Notes under the pieces: generated by a model
What the model saw: only the letters and a program-made list of their open reading frames with translations
The model's database searches: none
What the model was told of the DNA's origin: nothing
DNA from: an uncultured Muribaculaceae bacterium
GTDB lineage: Bacteria > Bacillota_I > Bacilli_A > RF39 > UBA660
Reading direction: 5' to 3'
Length of the DNA stretch: 54,493 nucleotides
Assembly (NCBI GenBank): GCA_964549115.1
Contig: CAZJTX010000001.1
Coordinates: 1 to 54,493 of the forward strand
Translations under genes and position numbers: made by a program
Shown here: piece after piece, positions 29,593 through 47,741 of the stretch
Position numbering within the stretch: the stretch's first letter is position 1
Layout of the letters: each line of letters begins with the position of its first letter

Positions 29593-30591
29593 CTATCCCT
29601 CCTTTTGTATTAATTTAATCAAATCTGCTTTTTTAAGCGATGAGTAACCTGTTAAGTTTTTAGATTTTGCTATTGCTCTTAATTCAACTAAAGTTTTTTC
29701 ATTTAAATCTTCTTTAGGTTCTTCTTTTACGACTTCTTTAGTAGGTTCTTTTGATTCCTCTTTTTTAGATTCTTTCTTTTCTTCTTTTGGTTCAACTTTT
29801 TCTTCTGTTTTTTCTTCAACTTTTTCTGCTGGTTTAGGTTCTTTCTTTTCTGTTACTTTTTCTTCTTTTACTGGTTGTTTATCCTCTTCTTTAATATACT
29901 CAACCATTTCTAATCCAGTTCCTTCACAAATAGCATTGTTTAAAACACCAAATATAATTTTAATTGACTTTACTGCATCATCATTACCTGGTATCACAAA
30001 ATCCAAAACATCAGGATCGCCATTTGTGTCTATTAAACCAAATACTGGAATTTTAAGTTTTTTCGCTTCTCTAATAGCGTTATATTCTTTTATAGGATCT
30101 ACTAATATAATTGCTTGAGGTAATTTGTCCATTCCTCTTATACCGCTTAAAACCCTATTTAACTTATCATATTCTTTCTTAATTTTAACAACTTCTTTTT
30201 TAGGTAATTTATCAAAATCACCATTTTTTTCCATTATTTCAATTTCGTCAAGTCTTTTCGCTCTATTTCTAATTGTTCTAAAATTAGTTAAAGTTCCACC
30301 TAACCATCTTTCAGTAACATAAAACGACTCACTTCTTGTTGCTTCTTCTTTTGCTGCTTCCTGAGCTTGCTTCTTAGTTCCTACAAACAATACTTTTCCA
30401 CCATTTTCAGAAATAGTTTTAAGTTCATTGTAAGCAACTTTAAGTAGCTCTGATGTTTTTTCTAAATCGATAATATAAATATCTTCTCTAGCTCCAAAAA
30501 TATAATCTTTCATTTTTGGATTCCATCTTTTTGTTTGGTGACCAAAATGTACACCTGCTTCTAATAAATAACTCATTGATACTACGGCCAT
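29593..30591 (-). CDS. rpsB: 30S ribosomal protein S2 with a C-terminal extension of about 90 aa
   Basis: I chose the start [27 protein letters not shown] (AGGAGG 9 nt upstream), not the TTG at 30600. The S2 core is followed by a Lys/Glu/Pro-rich tract and a terminal [28 protein letters not shown] motif. Confidence 0.95.
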
Positions 30592-30730
30592 AAATAACAA
30601 CCTCCTTCGTTTTTTTCTTCTTAATACATCAACTTACAATCTCACCTAATTTAGGCACTAGAGATTATAATCCATATTAATGCTTATTTGCATTTACTGC
30701 CAATATGTATTTTAGCATAAGTATCTATAT

Positions 30731-31786
30731 CTAGCAAGTTTTTGTTCTTTTATTTTCTTGATTTTTTAACTGTTTGGCAAAAACTTTCAATATACCGTTT
30801 TTCAAATCGATAAATTCCAAGTAAATCTCCCCTATACCCGGAAATTTTTCATATGGTAAATCCATATCATATAATCTATATGGAGTAATCATATACTTTT
30901 CGAAATCAGAAATATACTCTAAGGTTTTAAATAATGAATCCTTATTATTTTCAAGTTTATTCATAAGTTCCAATTTGAAATATTCAAACATACACTTTTG
31001 AACTAGACCTGGACCATTATAAAACAAATTTGGATTATCATTGTGGTGCTGAGTTAAATATAGAAATTCAATAATATTAAATACTTTACGATTACTTTCT
31101 GAGTCAACATATTTATTTAATTCTAAAATTATATTATCTATACCGTTTGCTTTAAAATATTCTCCTGCCATAAATTCAAAAGATAGAATCGTACATAATT
31201 GTCCTACAAACGCAGTGGCAAACTCATAGTAATAAACATTGTTATCAATGGTTGGAAATGCTCTGTTAGTAATTATGTCTGTCATACCTTCTGTTATTCC
31301 CATATTATATGAAACGTTCTTATTATAATCTATTTTTGTAAAACCTGTATAAAGCACATTTTCTTTAGAATCAAATCTACTACTAGCTAAATGGGTTAAT
31401 TCATGCAAATAAATTGAAGAAACTATTTTTATTAAATAATCAACTTTAAATTTTTGACCATTTGCTTGACTAATAAGGTCAACTACACTATTTAAACAAA
31501 ACATAATTTCATTTTCTAATAATGAATAAAAAGCAAAAGTTACACCGTCGTTATCAGTTACTTTGTCATCAGATAAATACTTCTTTTCATTCAATCGGTA
31601 ACCAAATTTTACTTTTTCCAAATTATTAATAAATCTAAAATGAAAATTTTTCGGAATTATCTCAAACAAATATAATATAAGTTCTTTCTTATTTTTTAAA
31701 TGTTTTAATTTATCAAAATTTATATTATGGTTTAAATTTGATTTTGTCTTTATTTCAGTTTTATACTTTATCACAACATACTCCAT
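30731..31786 (-). CDS. Hypothetical protein with HExxH motif (putative zinc metallopeptidase), 351 aa
   Basis: YLHELTHLAS, with a downstream GITEGMTD as a possible third ligand region. No signal peptide or TM segment seen. Confidence 0.55.
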   Translation of the reverse strand: MEYVVIKYKTEIKTKSNLNHNINFDKLKHLKNKKELILYLFEIIPKNFHFRFINNLEKVKFGYRLNEKKYLSDDKVTDNDGVTFAFYSLLENEIMFCLNSVVDLISQANGQKFKVDYLIKIVSSIYLHELTHLASSRFDSKENVLYTGFTKIDYNKNVSYNMGITEGMTDIITNRAFPTIDNNVYYYEFATAFVGQLCTILSFEFMAGEYFKANGIDNIILELNKYVDSESNRKVFNIIEFLYLTQHHNDNPNLFYNGPGLVQKCMFEYFKLELMNKLENNKDSLFKTLEYISDFEKYMITPYRLYDMDLPYEKFPGIGEIYLEFIDLKNGILKVFAKQLKNQENKRTKTC

Positions 31787-31858
31787 CCATTAGTTTGTTA
31801 TTATATCAAAACTTAAATAAAAATTACAAATAATATAAATAGTTGGTATAATATATTT

Positions 31859-32653
31859 ATGAAAGATATTATAAAAGATATGTTATACGAAATTGATCCG
31901 AAAGTTAAGAAAAGACAAAAATGGTTTAAAATAGGAATTCTTATTTTAATTTTGGTAAGTATTCTTTTAGTAAATATATTTTTACTTAATAGTGCTTCTT
32001 TCAAACAAAAAGAAGAAATTAGAGAACTTCAACAATATATTAAAGAAAAAGAAAACATTAAACATACTGATAAAATTATTAAAGAGCATTTAGATTACGT
32101 TAATACTCATATAAGAGATATTGATTTTGAAAAGTTAAAAGAAATTAATAAAGAAACATATGGGTGGATTCAATTAAACGGAACCAAAGTTAATTATCCA
32201 TTTTTAAAAACTAATAATAATGATTATTATCAATCCCATTCTTTTTACAAGAAAAACAACAACAACGGATGGGCTTTTATGGATCATAATACTAACTTAA
32301 ACGACAACCATATAATAATATACGGAATAAATATTAATAAAAAAGAGATGTTTGGGGATTTAAAAAGAACATTAAGTAAAAATTGGTTTGAAAGTAAAAC
32401 TAGTCATTTTATTAAAATACTTACAGAAGAAGAAATGAATATATGGAAAATATATAGTGTTTATAAATCCAAAGAACTAATTACAAAAAAAACTTTTAAC
32501 CAAACAGAGCTTAGTGAGTTTTTAAACACTACTAGTAAAGCAAGCATCCATTCATTTAACGAAAACACAGCCGGAACGGACAAAGTATTAACCATAACTA
32601 CACATCTAGATAAAAATGAATACATAGTTATACATGCTTTATTAATTAAATAA
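31859..32653 (+). CDS. Sortase B (class B) homolog lacking the canonical catalytic residues
   Basis: N-terminal TM segment. INKETYGWIQLNGTKVNYPFLKTNNNDYY, GWAFMD, HIIIYGIN and KVLTITTH align by eye with S. aureus SrtB segments INKDIVGWIKLSGTSLNYPVLQ, GSIFMD, NTILYGHH and RIMTLSTC. Confidence 0.7.
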   Translation: MKDIIKDMLYEIDPKVKKRQKWFKIGILILILVSILLVNIFLLNSASFKQKEEIRELQQYIKEKENIKHTDKIIKEHLDYVNTHIRDIDFEKLKEINKETYGWIQLNGTKVNYPFLKTNNNDYYQSHSFYKKNNNNGWAFMDHNTNLNDNHIIIYGININKKEMFGDLKRTLSKNWFESKTSHFIKILTEEEMNIWKIYSVYKSKELITKKTFNQTELSEFLNTTSKASIHSFNENTAGTDKVLTITTHLDKNEYIVIHALLIK

Positions 32654-32655
32654 GT

Positions 32656-32687
32656 TAAAAAGAAGGTGTAATATAACCTTCTTTTTT
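32656..32687 (+). terminator. Intrinsic terminator of the sortase-like gene
   Basis: AGAAGGT-GTAATATA-ACCTTCT followed by a T-run. Confidence 0.6.
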
Positions 32688-32784: not shown

Positions 32785-33441
32785 TTATTTTGTAAAAAGT
32801 GTTTGTACTGCGGTTAATAATGCTAGTGAAAAAAAGAGCAATGTAGAAATGGTTAAACTTTGGAAACCAGGCATTATATAAACAAAATTAATTATAATCA
32901 AAAAGAATATGATAATTCCTTTAACAAACGATATAACTTTAACTAATCTATTTTTAGCAGAAGAAGCCATCAATGGCTCGTCCTTTAATTCCGGATATTT
33001 TTTATCCAAATAATTATTAACTAAATGTCTTATCAATTCTTTTATTATAAATAATATAAGTACCGTTGATATTATTAAAAATACCATGAACGCAACACCC
33101 CTTGGTTCACTACCTAAAAACCTTAATACTCTATTAACATTACCGACGTTTATCAAGTTAGTTATTAGTTTATATATTTGGAAAATTAATATTAACGAAA
33201 TTAAAACAAAAAATATTGTTTTTTTAATGTTCCAGGGTTTTGGTTCATAATTTTCAAAATGTTCTTCGAGCAACAAAACTAAACTGCTTAATACTCCTAG
33301 TATAATTGCGCTTACAAAAACTGAAAACATCAAATAATATAATAAGTACGGATCTATTACATACAATAAAAATAACGACGCAAATATTGTTATTATAGAA
33401 GCCTTCATAAACTTAATTAAAGATCTGGCATTTATTTTCAC
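32785..33441 (-). CDS. Hypothetical polytopic membrane protein, 218 aa
   Basis: Five or six hydrophobic segments; no family motif recognised. Confidence 0.6.
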   Translation of the reverse strand: MKINARSLIKFMKASIITIFASLFLLYVIDPYLLYYLMFSVFVSAIILGVLSSLVLLLEEHFENYEPKPWNIKKTIFFVLISLILIFQIYKLITNLINVGNVNRVLRFLGSEPRGVAFMVFLIISTVLILFIIKELIRHLVNNYLDKKYPELKDEPLMASSAKNRLVKVISFVKGIIIFFLIIINFVYIMPGFQSLTISTLLFFSLALLTAVQTLFTK

Positions 33442-44500: not shown

Positions 44501-46099
44501 TTATTCTATTATTGGAACGTATGGATTGTTATATAGTCCATTACCCGTAACCATTAAATCTGGTTTTAAAGATATAACCGGTCTTATACCATAAGAATCT
44601 TGAATTGAATTACTATAAACGTGCCCCCCCGTAAATACATATAATGCATATGAGGTTGAAGTTGTAGTTTGATATGGTGCGGATAACCAATAATTTTGAT
44701 TTGTATTTAAATAATAATTGTTATTACCTGTATTAAATTTACCTCCCGCCATCATTACTTCATCTGCGGTTAATAAACCTACTGGATTAGCTAATTTAGC
44801 ATTTCCTTTTACTGAATCACTCTTGGTATACGCATCTTCTTTATTAGGGCACTTTAAGGTGGGATTTTTTTGAGTATTCAATCTAACATAAGTTCCATAA
44901 TACCAAGTACCGCTTGATGGTAACCCCATAGCTGCAACTGGAGTAACTCCGTTTGTACTTAAGAATGATGTTTTATCATTACACATAATAACATCTTGTA
45001 AATATTCTTCATATGGTTTTAATTTACTATTATACCAACTATCTATAGATACTTTAATTATACTCTCTGATGTATACCCTCTATGTTTACCCACTTCATA
45101 TGTATAACCAACATATTCAGCTTTATTTATTAATGAGTGATATGCACTCGTACCTATTTGGGTCCCTGTTCCTTCCATTATAACGGCTTGTCCACTCGTT
45201 GGAGCAGTAGTACCACTATATATTAATTTAACTGAATAATCTCCATTTATTTTAACGATTCTCCACCATATATCTTTAGTACCATCTTTTCCAAACTTCA
45301 CCCAGTTGTTATTAACTGCTCCTCTAAAATAATAACTTGTTCCATAATCATCTTCAGTAGGAAACATTCCTTCATTAGTCGTAGCAACAGCATTAAAGTT
45401 AGGAGTAGATCTTCCTTCTATATAAGACGCTCCACCTTTATCTGATAATATTGTTTCGTAAAATCTAGGTAATTGATATGCTTCCATTACTAAATTAGCT
45501 TCTAAATCTTTATTTTGATTTTGATGTTGCAAAGTATCTAAGTTTATAAAAGATACCGTAGCTGTCCATATATGAGTTGTTCCAGTAGTACTAGAATTGG
45601 TTGTTATTTCTTGTTTTCTTTTTACCGGAATTTTACCTCTATATTCAGTTATGTCAAAACCAGATATACCATCTATTGTTACATAATTAAATCCTACTAT
45701 ATTAGTAATGGGTTGATTGTTATGATCAGTTATAGTTAATAATATTTCAGGTTTTTTACTTTGTGTCGTATATATATATTCATTTTCCACAATATCAAAA
45801 TAAACATCATAATCTTTTGTAGCGGTGTTAGTGTTATCATTTGCAATTAATGTAACTTGAGATGACGTTGTAGATGAAAGATTACCTCCCCCAACGGGTA
45901 AATTAAATTGATGAACTTCTAAATGTATTGGATCTCCTTCGGTAAATTTTAATTCATCTAATGTACTACTACTAACTTTGACGCTTGTTTTAGCTTCAGT
46001 TTGTATATCTAACATAAAATAAGCATAAGAAATAGAAAGTACTATTATTAAACTTCCTATAATTGATAAAAGAATAAATCTAGTCTTATTACTTATCAT
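44501..46099 (-). CDS. Putative secreted/surface protein, 532 aa (intact member of a tandem paralog pair)
   Basis: N-terminal anchor/signal ...LSISYAYFMLD, a Thr/Ser-rich beta-like region, a YYFRGAVNNNWVKFGK...WWRIVKINGD block, and a C-terminal NYWLSAP...GIRPVISL module. Paralogous to 46152-47741 along its full length. Confidence 0.7.
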   Translation of the reverse strand: MISNKTRFILLSIIGSLIIVLSISYAYFMLDIQTEAKTSVKVSSSTLDELKFTEGDPIHLEVHQFNLPVGGGNLSSTTSSQVTLIANDNTNTATKDYDVYFDIVENEYIYTTQSKKPEILLTITDHNNQPITNIVGFNYVTIDGISGFDITEYRGKIPVKRKQEITTNSSTTGTTHIWTATVSFINLDTLQHQNQNKDLEANLVMEAYQLPRFYETILSDKGGASYIEGRSTPNFNAVATTNEGMFPTEDDYGTSYYFRGAVNNNWVKFGKDGTKDIWWRIVKINGDYSVKLIYSGTTAPTSGQAVIMEGTGTQIGTSAYHSLINKAEYVGYTYEVGKHRGYTSESIIKVSIDSWYNSKLKPYEEYLQDVIMCNDKTSFLSTNGVTPVAAMGLPSSGTWYYGTYVRLNTQKNPTLKCPNKEDAYTKSDSVKGNAKLANPVGLLTADEVMMAGGKFNTGNNNYYLNTNQNYWLSAPYQTTTSTSYALYVFTGGHVYSNSIQDSYGIRPVISLKPDLMVTGNGLYNNPYVPIIE

Positions 46100-46151
46100 A
46101 TTTTATACCATATTAATTATATCATAACTTGTTTTACTTTATTATATATTT

Positions 46152-47741
46152 TTACATGTCAACTATATAAGGATCATTCCAATGTCCCGTTCCTGATACA
46201 GAAAGATCTGATGATAGAGAAATAACGGGACGAACGCCTGAAACAGCAACATTCAGAAAAAACAAGTTCAAAGCACCGGACGAATTTACGATAAATCCGA
46301 AAGCTTGAGAATCGTTCACAAGGCTCGGCGAAACCAACCAATAATTATTATTTATATATAAATAATAATTTTGATTAGTTGTCGTTCCATGGCCTCCTGC
46401 CAGAATTACTTCGTCTGCTGTCAATAGGCCTATTGGGTATGTTAGTTGCCCATTTCCTGCTTCGGTATCTGACACTGTATACGCATCTTCTTTATCAGGG
46501 CATGTTAATTGAGGCTTATTATTTGTATATAGTCTATGCTACACATCTGAAAACTTTATTGTGTCTGGTAGGTTTATTGGTATCCATTCGTCTGTGATAA
46601 AGCTCCTATCATTACACACTACAAAGTCACTTAGGTAGTCTTCATAGTCTTGCAAGTTTTCTTCATACCAGTTATCTATATTTTTTTTTATTACACTATT
46701 TGTAGAATGACCTCTATGTTCATTTAAGGTATACATATAACCTATGTATTCGCCTCTATGATCTGGTGAGTTAAAATAATATTTTCCTATTTGAGTTTTT
46801 GTTCCTGTCATTACTACTTTTTGTGCGTCTGTTGGGGCCTCTGTTCCTGTGTATATTAGTTTTACCGACCCATCACCATTTATTCTAACTATTCTCCACC
46901 ATATATCATTGTCGTCTTCTTTTCCAAATTTGACCCAATTATTATCTACAGCTCCTCTAAAGTAATAACTCATTCCATAATCATCTTCTATAGCATACAT
47001 ACCTTCATTTGTGGTAGATATAATATCTAGCGCATGCGACTTTTGTTCTATAGATTCTTTGCTACCGTTATTAGCCAAAAGAGTTTCTTTAAAGGTTGAC
47101 TTATATTTTTTTATTATCAAGTTCGCACTCATGGTTTTTCCTTCTATGGCACTTTGGTCTTTACCATCTAAATTAATGAAAGTTATTGTTGATGTCCATA
47201 TATGAGTAGTGCCTGTCGTTGACGAAGTAGTAGTTATTTCTTGTTTGCTTTTTAAAACTATTTCTCCTTCATATTCAGTTATGTCGAAACCCGATACTCC
47301 TCCTTGGTTAACATAAGTTAGCCCGGGTACTGAAGTAACGTTATTGTTATTTTGATCTTTTATAGTCAGTATTATTTCTGGTGTCTTTTCAAGAGTTGTG
47401 TAAAAAAAACCGTTTTCTTCTATATAAAAAACAACATCATAATATTTAGTAGCTTCGTTTGTTGTATTATTTGCTACTAAGGTAACTGATGAAGTTGTAC
47501 TTCCCGTTAAATTTCCTTTACTTATCCCTAGTGTGGAACTATCCACCGTTAGACCAATTGGAGTACCCTGTTCAAAGTCCATCTTATCAAGAGAACCACT
47601 TACAATGTCTACCTTTGTTGTTGCAGCTTTGCCAATATGAGGTGCCATATAAGCATAAGTAAGAGACAAGGCTATTATTAATATCCCTATTATACTTAGT
47701 ATGGTTATTTTAGATTTTCTTGAAACGTTAATATTTGCCAC
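46152..47741 (-). pseudogene. Paralog of the 532-aa surface protein, interrupted by one in-frame TAG (46539-46541)
   Basis: ORFs 46539..47741 and 46152..46475 are in the same frame (66 nt, or 22 codons, between the TAG and the downstream ATG). The intervening codons translate as HRLYTNNKPQLTCPDKEDAYT, colinear with YVRLNTQKNPTLKCPNKEDAYT of the intact paralog. Confidence 0.65.

Follow-up and report, generated by a model that had tools for sequence, protein, structure and literature searches.

The stretch of DNA analyzed here, 54,493 nucleotides of contig CAZJTX010000001.1 (assembly GCA_964549115.1, deposited as an uncultured Muribaculaceae bacterium and placed by GTDB in Bacilli_A; RF39; UBA660) and referred to below as the window, carries on its plus strand a gene for a 264-residue protein without a single cysteine (31859..32653, the end coordinate counting the stop codon). 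We interpret this protein, which we call the pseudo-sortase, as a paralog of the class B sortases (SrtB) that has lost catalysis and is kept by selection as a membrane-anchored extracytoplasmic pseudoenzyme, and we put the probability of this interpretation at about 0.75-0.85. A retained function is suggested because the gene is under purifying selection, has promoter and terminator signals of its own and falls within an older clade of cysteine-less relatives. The protein belongs to the class B sortases by ancestry and by fold; it should not be annotated as a sortase enzyme, because all three catalytic residues are replaced and its score stays below the curated cut-off of the class B sortase profile.

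Homology to class B sortases along the whole length, which an earlier note on this DNA had claimed by eye, is borne out by profile, sequence and structure searches (E of about 1e-20 with phmmer against structures). Full-domain phmmer alignments were obtained to Protein Data Bank chains of L. monocytogenes Lmo2181, B. anthracis SrtB and S. aureus SrtB at E = 4e-20 to 2e-17, and with C. perfringens and C. difficile SrtB included the range is 4e-20 to 4e-16. The motifs matched by eye, GWAFMD among them, are all paired in these alignments, as INKETYGWIQLNGTKVNYPFLKTNNNDYY, GWAFMD, IIIYG and IVIHA. Residues 27-249 are recognized by TIGR03064, the NCBIfam profile for class B sortases, with E = 4.6e-28; the score of only 98.1 bits stays below the curated cut-off, which lies at 153.75. 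As a control, the genome's own canonical SrtBs reach 160.2 and 183.2 bits, both above this value, while four cysteine-less proteins including the pseudo-sortase score 88-121 bits, all below it.

The AlphaFold2 (AF2) model, built from 150 sequences, has a mean predicted local distance difference test score (pLDDT) of 88.1 and a predicted template modeling score of 0.81. It shows the eight-stranded barrel and the extra N-terminal helices that define the SrtB fold. In a Foldseek search of the Protein Data Bank the first 19 ranks are all class B sortases (best E 1.6e-16, root mean square deviation ~2.8-3.3 Å, target TM-score 0.66-0.83), and the other sortase classes follow only after rank 19, at E ~1e-6. 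The N-terminal membrane anchor proposed earlier is likewise supported: residues 23-45 (FKIGILILILVSILLVNIFLLNS, 31925..31993, plus strand) were delimited from hydropathy and the AF2 helix, the hydrophobic transmembrane segment itself spans residues 25-43 with a mean Kyte-Doolittle hydropathy of 3.16, and in the model residues 14-58 form one unbroken helix. N-terminal to this segment lies the positive patch KVKKRQKW in a Lys/Arg-rich tail. This arrangement implies, as far as sequence can predict it, a type-II topology with the N-terminus in and the C-terminus out, as in sortases.

All three residues of the catalytic triad are replaced. In the phmmer alignments to SrtB structures, 'tILYGHh' pairs with 'iIIYGINi', so that the catalytic His is occupied by Ile157 (codon ATA, 32327..32329) and YGH reads YGI. 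Similarly, 'mTLSTCeda' pairs with 'lTITTHldk', which places His249 (CAT, 32603..32605) at the nucleophilic Cys and turns TLSTC into TITTH. For the catalytic Arg, which the earlier note had located only as "Tyr or nearby", the pairing of 'gRLVVHAKLVK' from B. anthracis SrtB with 'eYIVIHALLIK' settles on Tyr255 (TAC, 32621..32623; all three codons on the plus strand). The same three positions emerge from a MAFFT alignment of 152 proteins, namely the 149 closest other proteins in a library of 1.84 billion and three matches from 90% clusters. The triad columns hold H in 143, C in 138 and R or K in 141 of the 152, and the His column is H in 100% of the 136 homologs that bear the Cys. The AF2 model agrees, with strands at 151-156, 243-249 and 255-262: residue 157 comes directly after β4, residue 249 closes β7 and residue 255 opens β8. 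In sortase B the His, Cys and Arg are located just past β4, at the end of β7 and at the start of β8, respectively (PMC5118464). The Pfam sortase profile PF04203 gave no match to the pseudo-sortase at E <= 1; TIGR03064, AF2 and Foldseek place Ile, His and Tyr at the triad.

Both orthologs described below are also devoid of cysteine. Because the protein contains none at all, a shifted alignment cannot rescue a thiol nucleophile. Each of the codons ATA, CAT and TAC is at least two substitutions away from its ancestral codon, and therefore none of the replacements is a single-base error. Without a thiol the predicted protein cannot form the thioacyl intermediate, and the known transpeptidase mechanism is impossible for it. 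Much of the core is kept: canonical SrtBs share 55 columns with a conservation of 80% or more, and the pseudo-sortase matches 36 of these, among them Y155, T245, S200, Y202 and H259.

Is this simply a gene in decay? Two relatives were found in a collection of 5.8 billion proteins, P0001 with 98% and P0002 with 73% identity (the latter also in NCBI assembly GCA_964461465.1), and Ile, His and Tyr are kept in both; a HMMER search of 1.84 billion cluster representatives found nothing further above 42% identity. In a codon alignment with the 73% ortholog the ratio of nonsynonymous to synonymous substitution rates (dN/dS) is 0.128, at a dS of 1.37 that is near saturation. In the same comparison the neighboring genes give 0.140 (EF-Ts), 0.177 (ribosomal protein S2) and 0.243 (methyltransferase). 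The 73% protein identity between the two species is close to that of adjacent housekeeping genes (67-85%), and the frame is intact across lineages that differ at 27% of protein positions. The comparison with the 98% relative gives a dN/dS of 0.051; although 82% of the sites are nonsynonymous, just 5 base differences are of this kind and 18 are synonymous, which departs from neutrality at a binomial P of 3e-10. Judged by these comparisons the gene is not decaying and is held by purifying selection, and the conservation of the substitutions in orthologs on which the earlier note had made its case depend is thus observed, with dN/dS of 0.05-0.13; a pseudo-sortase rather than a pseudogene is what intact orthologs under purifying selection indicate. 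The gene is also widely sampled: 99-100% of its sampled 31-mers occur in at least 20 metagenome runs from 13 studies, and 100% in at least 18 of them, the sources being bioreactor, landfill, manure, digester and wastewater metagenomes.

All 24 of the 24 base differences from the 98% relative fall within codons 107-173 (32179-32377), and the remainder of the gene is identical. Such clustering suggests that a short segment was acquired by recombination from a strain of greater divergence; within this tract, 18 changes are synonymous and 5 nonsynonymous.

The gene appears to be equipped for its own expression. A sequence scan found a putative promoter on the plus strand at 31823..31852, in which ATTACA and TATAAT are separated by 18 nucleotides and a TG extension is present. 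The extended -10 element (TGgTATAAT) ends 6 nucleotides ahead of the ATG, and no Shine-Dalgarno sequence was seen upstream of this start codon; for these two reasons the mRNA is likely to be leaderless. The arrangement TGnTATAAT-N6-ATGAAAG is kept in the 73% ortholog, within an intergenic region that has otherwise diverged. Directly 3' of the stop codon lies an 11-pair hairpin (32657..32686, no strand assigned), scored as terminator-like on the minus strand, which from its position between convergent genes may act in both directions. A run labeled as metatranscriptome yields a 2.7-kb contig over 31925-34600, covered about one third as deeply as the rpsB contig; it spans the convergent genes.

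The pseudo-sortase is one member of a larger group. Ten cysteine-less SrtB paralogs form one clade both in a rapid tree of 154 domains and in a more careful IQ-TREE analysis of 67 (ultrafast bootstrap 98, Shimodaira-Hasegawa-like approximate likelihood ratio test 97). The clade consists of the pseudo-sortase, P0002, P0012, P0034, P0094, P0113, P0062, P0107, P0163 and P0167; these proteins are metagenomic and all intact. The clade is sister to short SrtBs with a His/Cys/Lys(Arg) triad, among them the genome's own 281-residue enzyme. Because the ten fall into one supported clade, the Cys was probably lost once, before the lineages diverged to about 30-40% identity, although long-branch attraction among fast-evolving sequences may account for part of the grouping. 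Further, independent losses of the Cys are found elsewhere in the tree (P0036 with P0106, P0065, and P0151).

The residues that took the place of the triad differ within the clade. The Cys site is occupied by H, H, K, K, K, R, S, S, S and N, the His site by I, I, gap, H, K, H, Y, Y, H and H, and the Arg site by Y, Y, Y, Y, N, I, N, R, R and R, while only five positions, all weak, are conserved specifically in the clade. In the subclade that is devoid of the Arg, the former Cys site is basic; the other subclade has the Arg in 3 of 4 members and Ser or Asn at the Cys site. Positive charge in the pocket may still matter for ligand binding, a pattern that would go back to one or two evolutionary events.

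One clade member, P0113, in which the His is kept, the Cys is replaced by Arg and the Arg by Ile, overlaps convergently with two paralogous secreted surface proteins (L056:6001-9653). These end in (A/V)P(D/N)TAG (xPxTAG), followed by a transmembrane segment and the basic tail RRAY..K, and P0113 is the sole member of the clade with sorting-signal neighbors. Its genome encodes three PF04203 sortases of other classes and no canonical SrtB. Elsewhere in the clade the genes lie next to an MFS-type transporter and a glucosaminidase-like gene, uvrB, flippase-like and glycosyltransferase genes, or DUF2238.

The host genome contains the active counterpart. The assembly comprises 698 kb (92% complete, ~26% G+C), and since the loci of relatives carry murB, murG and ftsQ-type genes, the organism builds a cell wall. 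A search for canonical sortases and their substrates, which the earlier note had called for, turned up both outside the window. The first canonical SrtB has 281 residues (contig C6, 4860-5675), shows YAH, TLSTC and a Lys at the Arg site, scores 183 bits against TIGR03064 and matches PF04203. The second, with 518 residues, is encoded on contig C1 at ~76.4-78.0 kb, about 23 kb beyond the window; its His, Cys and Arg are intact and it scores 160 bits. All open frames of the genome were scanned for C-terminal sorting signals, defined by a motif, a hydrophobic stretch after it and then a basic tail. Three good candidates resulted, all on contigs other than that of the window: one NPETG protein on contig C5, with a weak match to a thioester domain, and two NPQTG proteins on contig C11, each with a transmembrane segment and a Lys tail. 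On the window's own contig the sole match is an implausible 119-residue 'LPSSS' frame, in line with the earlier observation that no protein of the window ends in an LPXTG or NPQTN-type signal. Because two canonical SrtBs and three NPxTG proteins are present, an active SrtB pathway coexists in this genome with the dead copy.

Several features of these enzymes and their presumed substrates deserve mention in their own right. The 518-residue SrtB has an additional N-terminal region of ~270 residues ahead of the transmembrane segment, with no Pfam match there, and this architecture recurs at 516-565 residues in many genomes of the bacterial family. Short class B sortases of the family mostly carry Lys in place of the catalytic Arg (TLSTCYNDxEKVVLHAK), as seen in 25 of the 29 top loci across 400 family genomes and in the genome's own 281-residue enzyme; this may represent a natural Cys-His-Lys variant of sortase B. 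Moreover, a family of surface proteins with the pattern YYFRGAVDNNW...WRIVRINGD...GVRPVISL...WNDPY is present in more than 15 copies in the 698-kb genome, at 44504-47741 (minus strand) in the window and on contigs C2, C9, C11, C13, C14, C15, C16, C21, C23, C31 and C33. Its members are anchored in three modes, by an N-terminal signal ending in AYF, by a prepilin-like GFT(L/I)IE leader or by a C-terminal NPQTG. The AYF-ending signals are reminiscent of SipW-dependent, TasA-type signals.

What could a sortase without its nucleophile be kept for? The pseudo-sortase descends from the short class B sortases of its bacterial family and has lost the Cys-His-Arg(Lys) triad. As the most likely mechanism we propose that the sortase barrel and groove, which are preserved, would serve for binding on the outer side of the membrane. 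Candidate ligands would be surface-protein precursors, through their NPxTG-type sorting signals, or the machinery of active SrtB and lipid II, and binding could hold, escort or regulate the substrates that the two active SrtBs of the genome handle. That the protein acts in this way, as a non-catalytic binder in the surface-protein pathway and a partner of sorting signals or of SrtB, is a possible but tentative view on sequence evidence. Its extension to the ten-member clade, as a coherent pseudo-sortase B family in which the groove would be a non-covalent receptor for sorting-signal tails and the positive charge would have been relocated to the former Cys site, is speculative and in our view unlikely.

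A number of observations weigh against the explanation proposed here. Of the 55 conserved SrtB columns, 19 are altered, most of them in common with the ortholog. Besides the triad these comprise two residues of TLSTC, its Leu and Ser, as well as the DYRN loop and a Tyr in the β6/β7 loop that has become Leu207. The β6/β7 loop belongs to the region that touches the sorting signal in the SrtB enzymes studied (PMC5118464). Both this Tyr and the Arg replaced by Tyr255 contact the sorting signal in those enzymes, and because such residues have changed, the canonical grip on NPxTG may have been lost as well. No sorting-signal protein adjoins the pseudo-sortase within the window. Across the clade the gene context is not conserved, on contigs that are mostly short, and the absence of a conserved partner gene for the pseudo-sortase is a weakness of the functional proposal. 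The exact Ile/His/Tyr group is known from two species-level lineages only. When a profile of the clade was searched against 400 genomes of the family, no clade member was among the top 29 matches, all of which are canonical His/Cys/Lys or His/Cys/Arg loci; fast-evolving dead proteins give an ancestor-like profile, so that such a search cannot map the distribution of the clade. Finally, the metatranscriptome contig, since it spans convergent genes, could be DNA carry-over.

Some of these points lend themselves to a different function for a maintained pseudoenzyme, in which the barrel would serve outside the cytoplasm as a general scaffold or as a domain that binds some ligand, such as a wall polymer or a different protein of the envelope, with no relation to sorting signals and sortases. 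The replacement of the substrate-contacting Tyr and Arg speaks for this view, adjacency to sorting-signal proteins is not conserved, and one clade member sits in a polysaccharide locus with flippase-like and glycosyltransferase genes. Against it, the SrtB-typical residues of groove and core are mostly kept, one clade member (P0113) adjoins two sorting-signal proteins, and the genome has retained an active SrtB system. We regard an unrelated role as doubtful, yet rank it nearly as likely as a partner role with sorting signals or SrtB. Far less probable is a new chemistry on the sortase fold, with His249, perhaps together with further histidines, as nucleophile, general base or metal ligand. This idea, which had been raised in the earlier note as a "different chemistry", draws on His249 and His151 being derived and conserved in all three orthologs. 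It is made very unlikely by the variation of the Cys site between H, K, R, S and N across the clade, and with the His site being I, H, K, Y or absent and only five weakly clade-specific positions, no conserved catalytic constellation is seen; His143, moreover, is Tyr in the 98% relative. A cluster of H143, H151 and H249 was considered as a metal site and rejected, on account of that Tyr and because these positions vary within the clade.

Two further explanations find little support. A decaying duplicate of a short SrtB, still open by chance, would fit with the complete loss of the triad, the long branches in the tree and the narrow taxonomic spread. We hold it to be highly improbable, as dN/dS of 0.05-0.13 resembles that of housekeeping neighbors, the frame has survived 27% protein divergence with identical replacements in the orthologs, the promoter geometry is conserved, and ten divergent clade proteins are intact. 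That the alignments misplaced a true Cys/His/Arg triad is a negligible prospect: nothing was found in its favor, the protein has no Cys, and HMMER, MAFFT and the AF2 secondary structure are concordant. The interpretation of the gene as a maintained, catalytically dead class B sortase is thus favored over each of these rivals.

The neighborhood of the pseudo-sortase gene gives no clue to its function. Upstream lies a divergent gene for a 351-residue HExxH protein (30731..31786, minus strand), and downstream a convergent gene for a 218-residue polytopic membrane protein (32785..33441, minus strand), which is present in the 98% relative and replaced by another gene at the locus of the 73% ortholog; a Pfam scan of the pseudo-sortase and both neighbors found nothing significant. 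The order of methyltransferase, tsf, rpsB, divergent HExxH protein and pseudo-sortase is shared with the 73% ortholog, where the downstream gene encodes a pilin-like surface protein of 445 residues. As a functional link this protein, a paralog of the two NPQTG proteins, was set aside: the surface-protein family has more than 15 copies per 698 kb, so its adjacency may be chance.

Nor was evidence found that the HExxH protein is a functional partner, as the relatives found do not stand beside sortases and the motif is lost in some paralogs. It has no family match in Pfam or NCBIfam searches, is 29% identical between the two species with a saturated dN/dS estimate, and its AF2 model (pLDDT 74.6) has no fold match in the Protein Data Bank at E < 1. 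Relatives occur in 2 other genomes among 41 searched, none near a sortase, and two paralogs are without HExxH. The divergent HExxH gene and the convergent membrane-protein gene, to which the earlier note had pointed, thus carry no functional signal, the downstream gene being swapped in the 73% ortholog and the HExxH family not being found beside sortases. This small, unnamed family has invariant ASS and (T/N)EG motifs. Further upstream, ribosomal protein S2 (29593-30600, minus strand) bears a C-terminal extension, with a match to Rho_N (PF07498) in the loci of both relatives.

Searches in a library of full-text papers found no description of catalytically dead sortase paralogs. Sortases are known as textbook cysteine transpeptidases, as drug targets and as tools of protein engineering, and the present case adds a dead sortase derived from class B, with clear evidence of selection, in Bacilli with small genomes. 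In a genome of ~0.7 Mb dispensable genes are rarely kept. Should the protein bind sorting signals or active sortases without cutting, it would exemplify natural regulators or escorts of surface-protein display, and such proteins would be ready-made non-cleaving binders for sorting motifs. If the clade-wide receptor view were correct, its members would retain surface proteins at the membrane or control how these are passed on to active SrtB, an undescribed regulatory layer of Gram-positive surface display.

The comparison with known systems summarizes what has been kept and what has been exchanged. Like the solved SrtBs of S. aureus (PDB codes: 1NG5, 4LFD), B. anthracis (1RZ2, 2OQW), C. difficile (5GYJ) and L. 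monocytogenes (Lmo2181, 5JCV), the pseudo-sortase has an N-terminal anchor, the SrtB-specific N-terminal helices and the eight-stranded barrel (Foldseek E ~1e-16, root mean square deviation ~2.8 Å), and it shares with them the motifs INK-x-x-GW, NYP, NDYY, GW-F-D, IIYG and VIHA. It differs from them by the exchanges of His to Ile, Cys to His, Arg to Tyr and the β6/β7 Tyr to Leu, and by the absence of any Cys. The genome's own 281-residue SrtB, which belongs to the nearest canonical group in the tree, is similar in length and architecture (31% identity over 277 residues by BLASTP), but unlike the pseudo-sortase it keeps YAH...TLSTC...K. Compared with the other members of the cysteine-less clade, identity to the pseudo-sortase is 29-39% (73% for P0002), and the residues at the former catalytic sites differ, as do the gene neighborhoods; on the other hand, all of them share with it an intact frame and the lack of Cys, and those that were scored likewise fall below the cut-off of TIGR03064.

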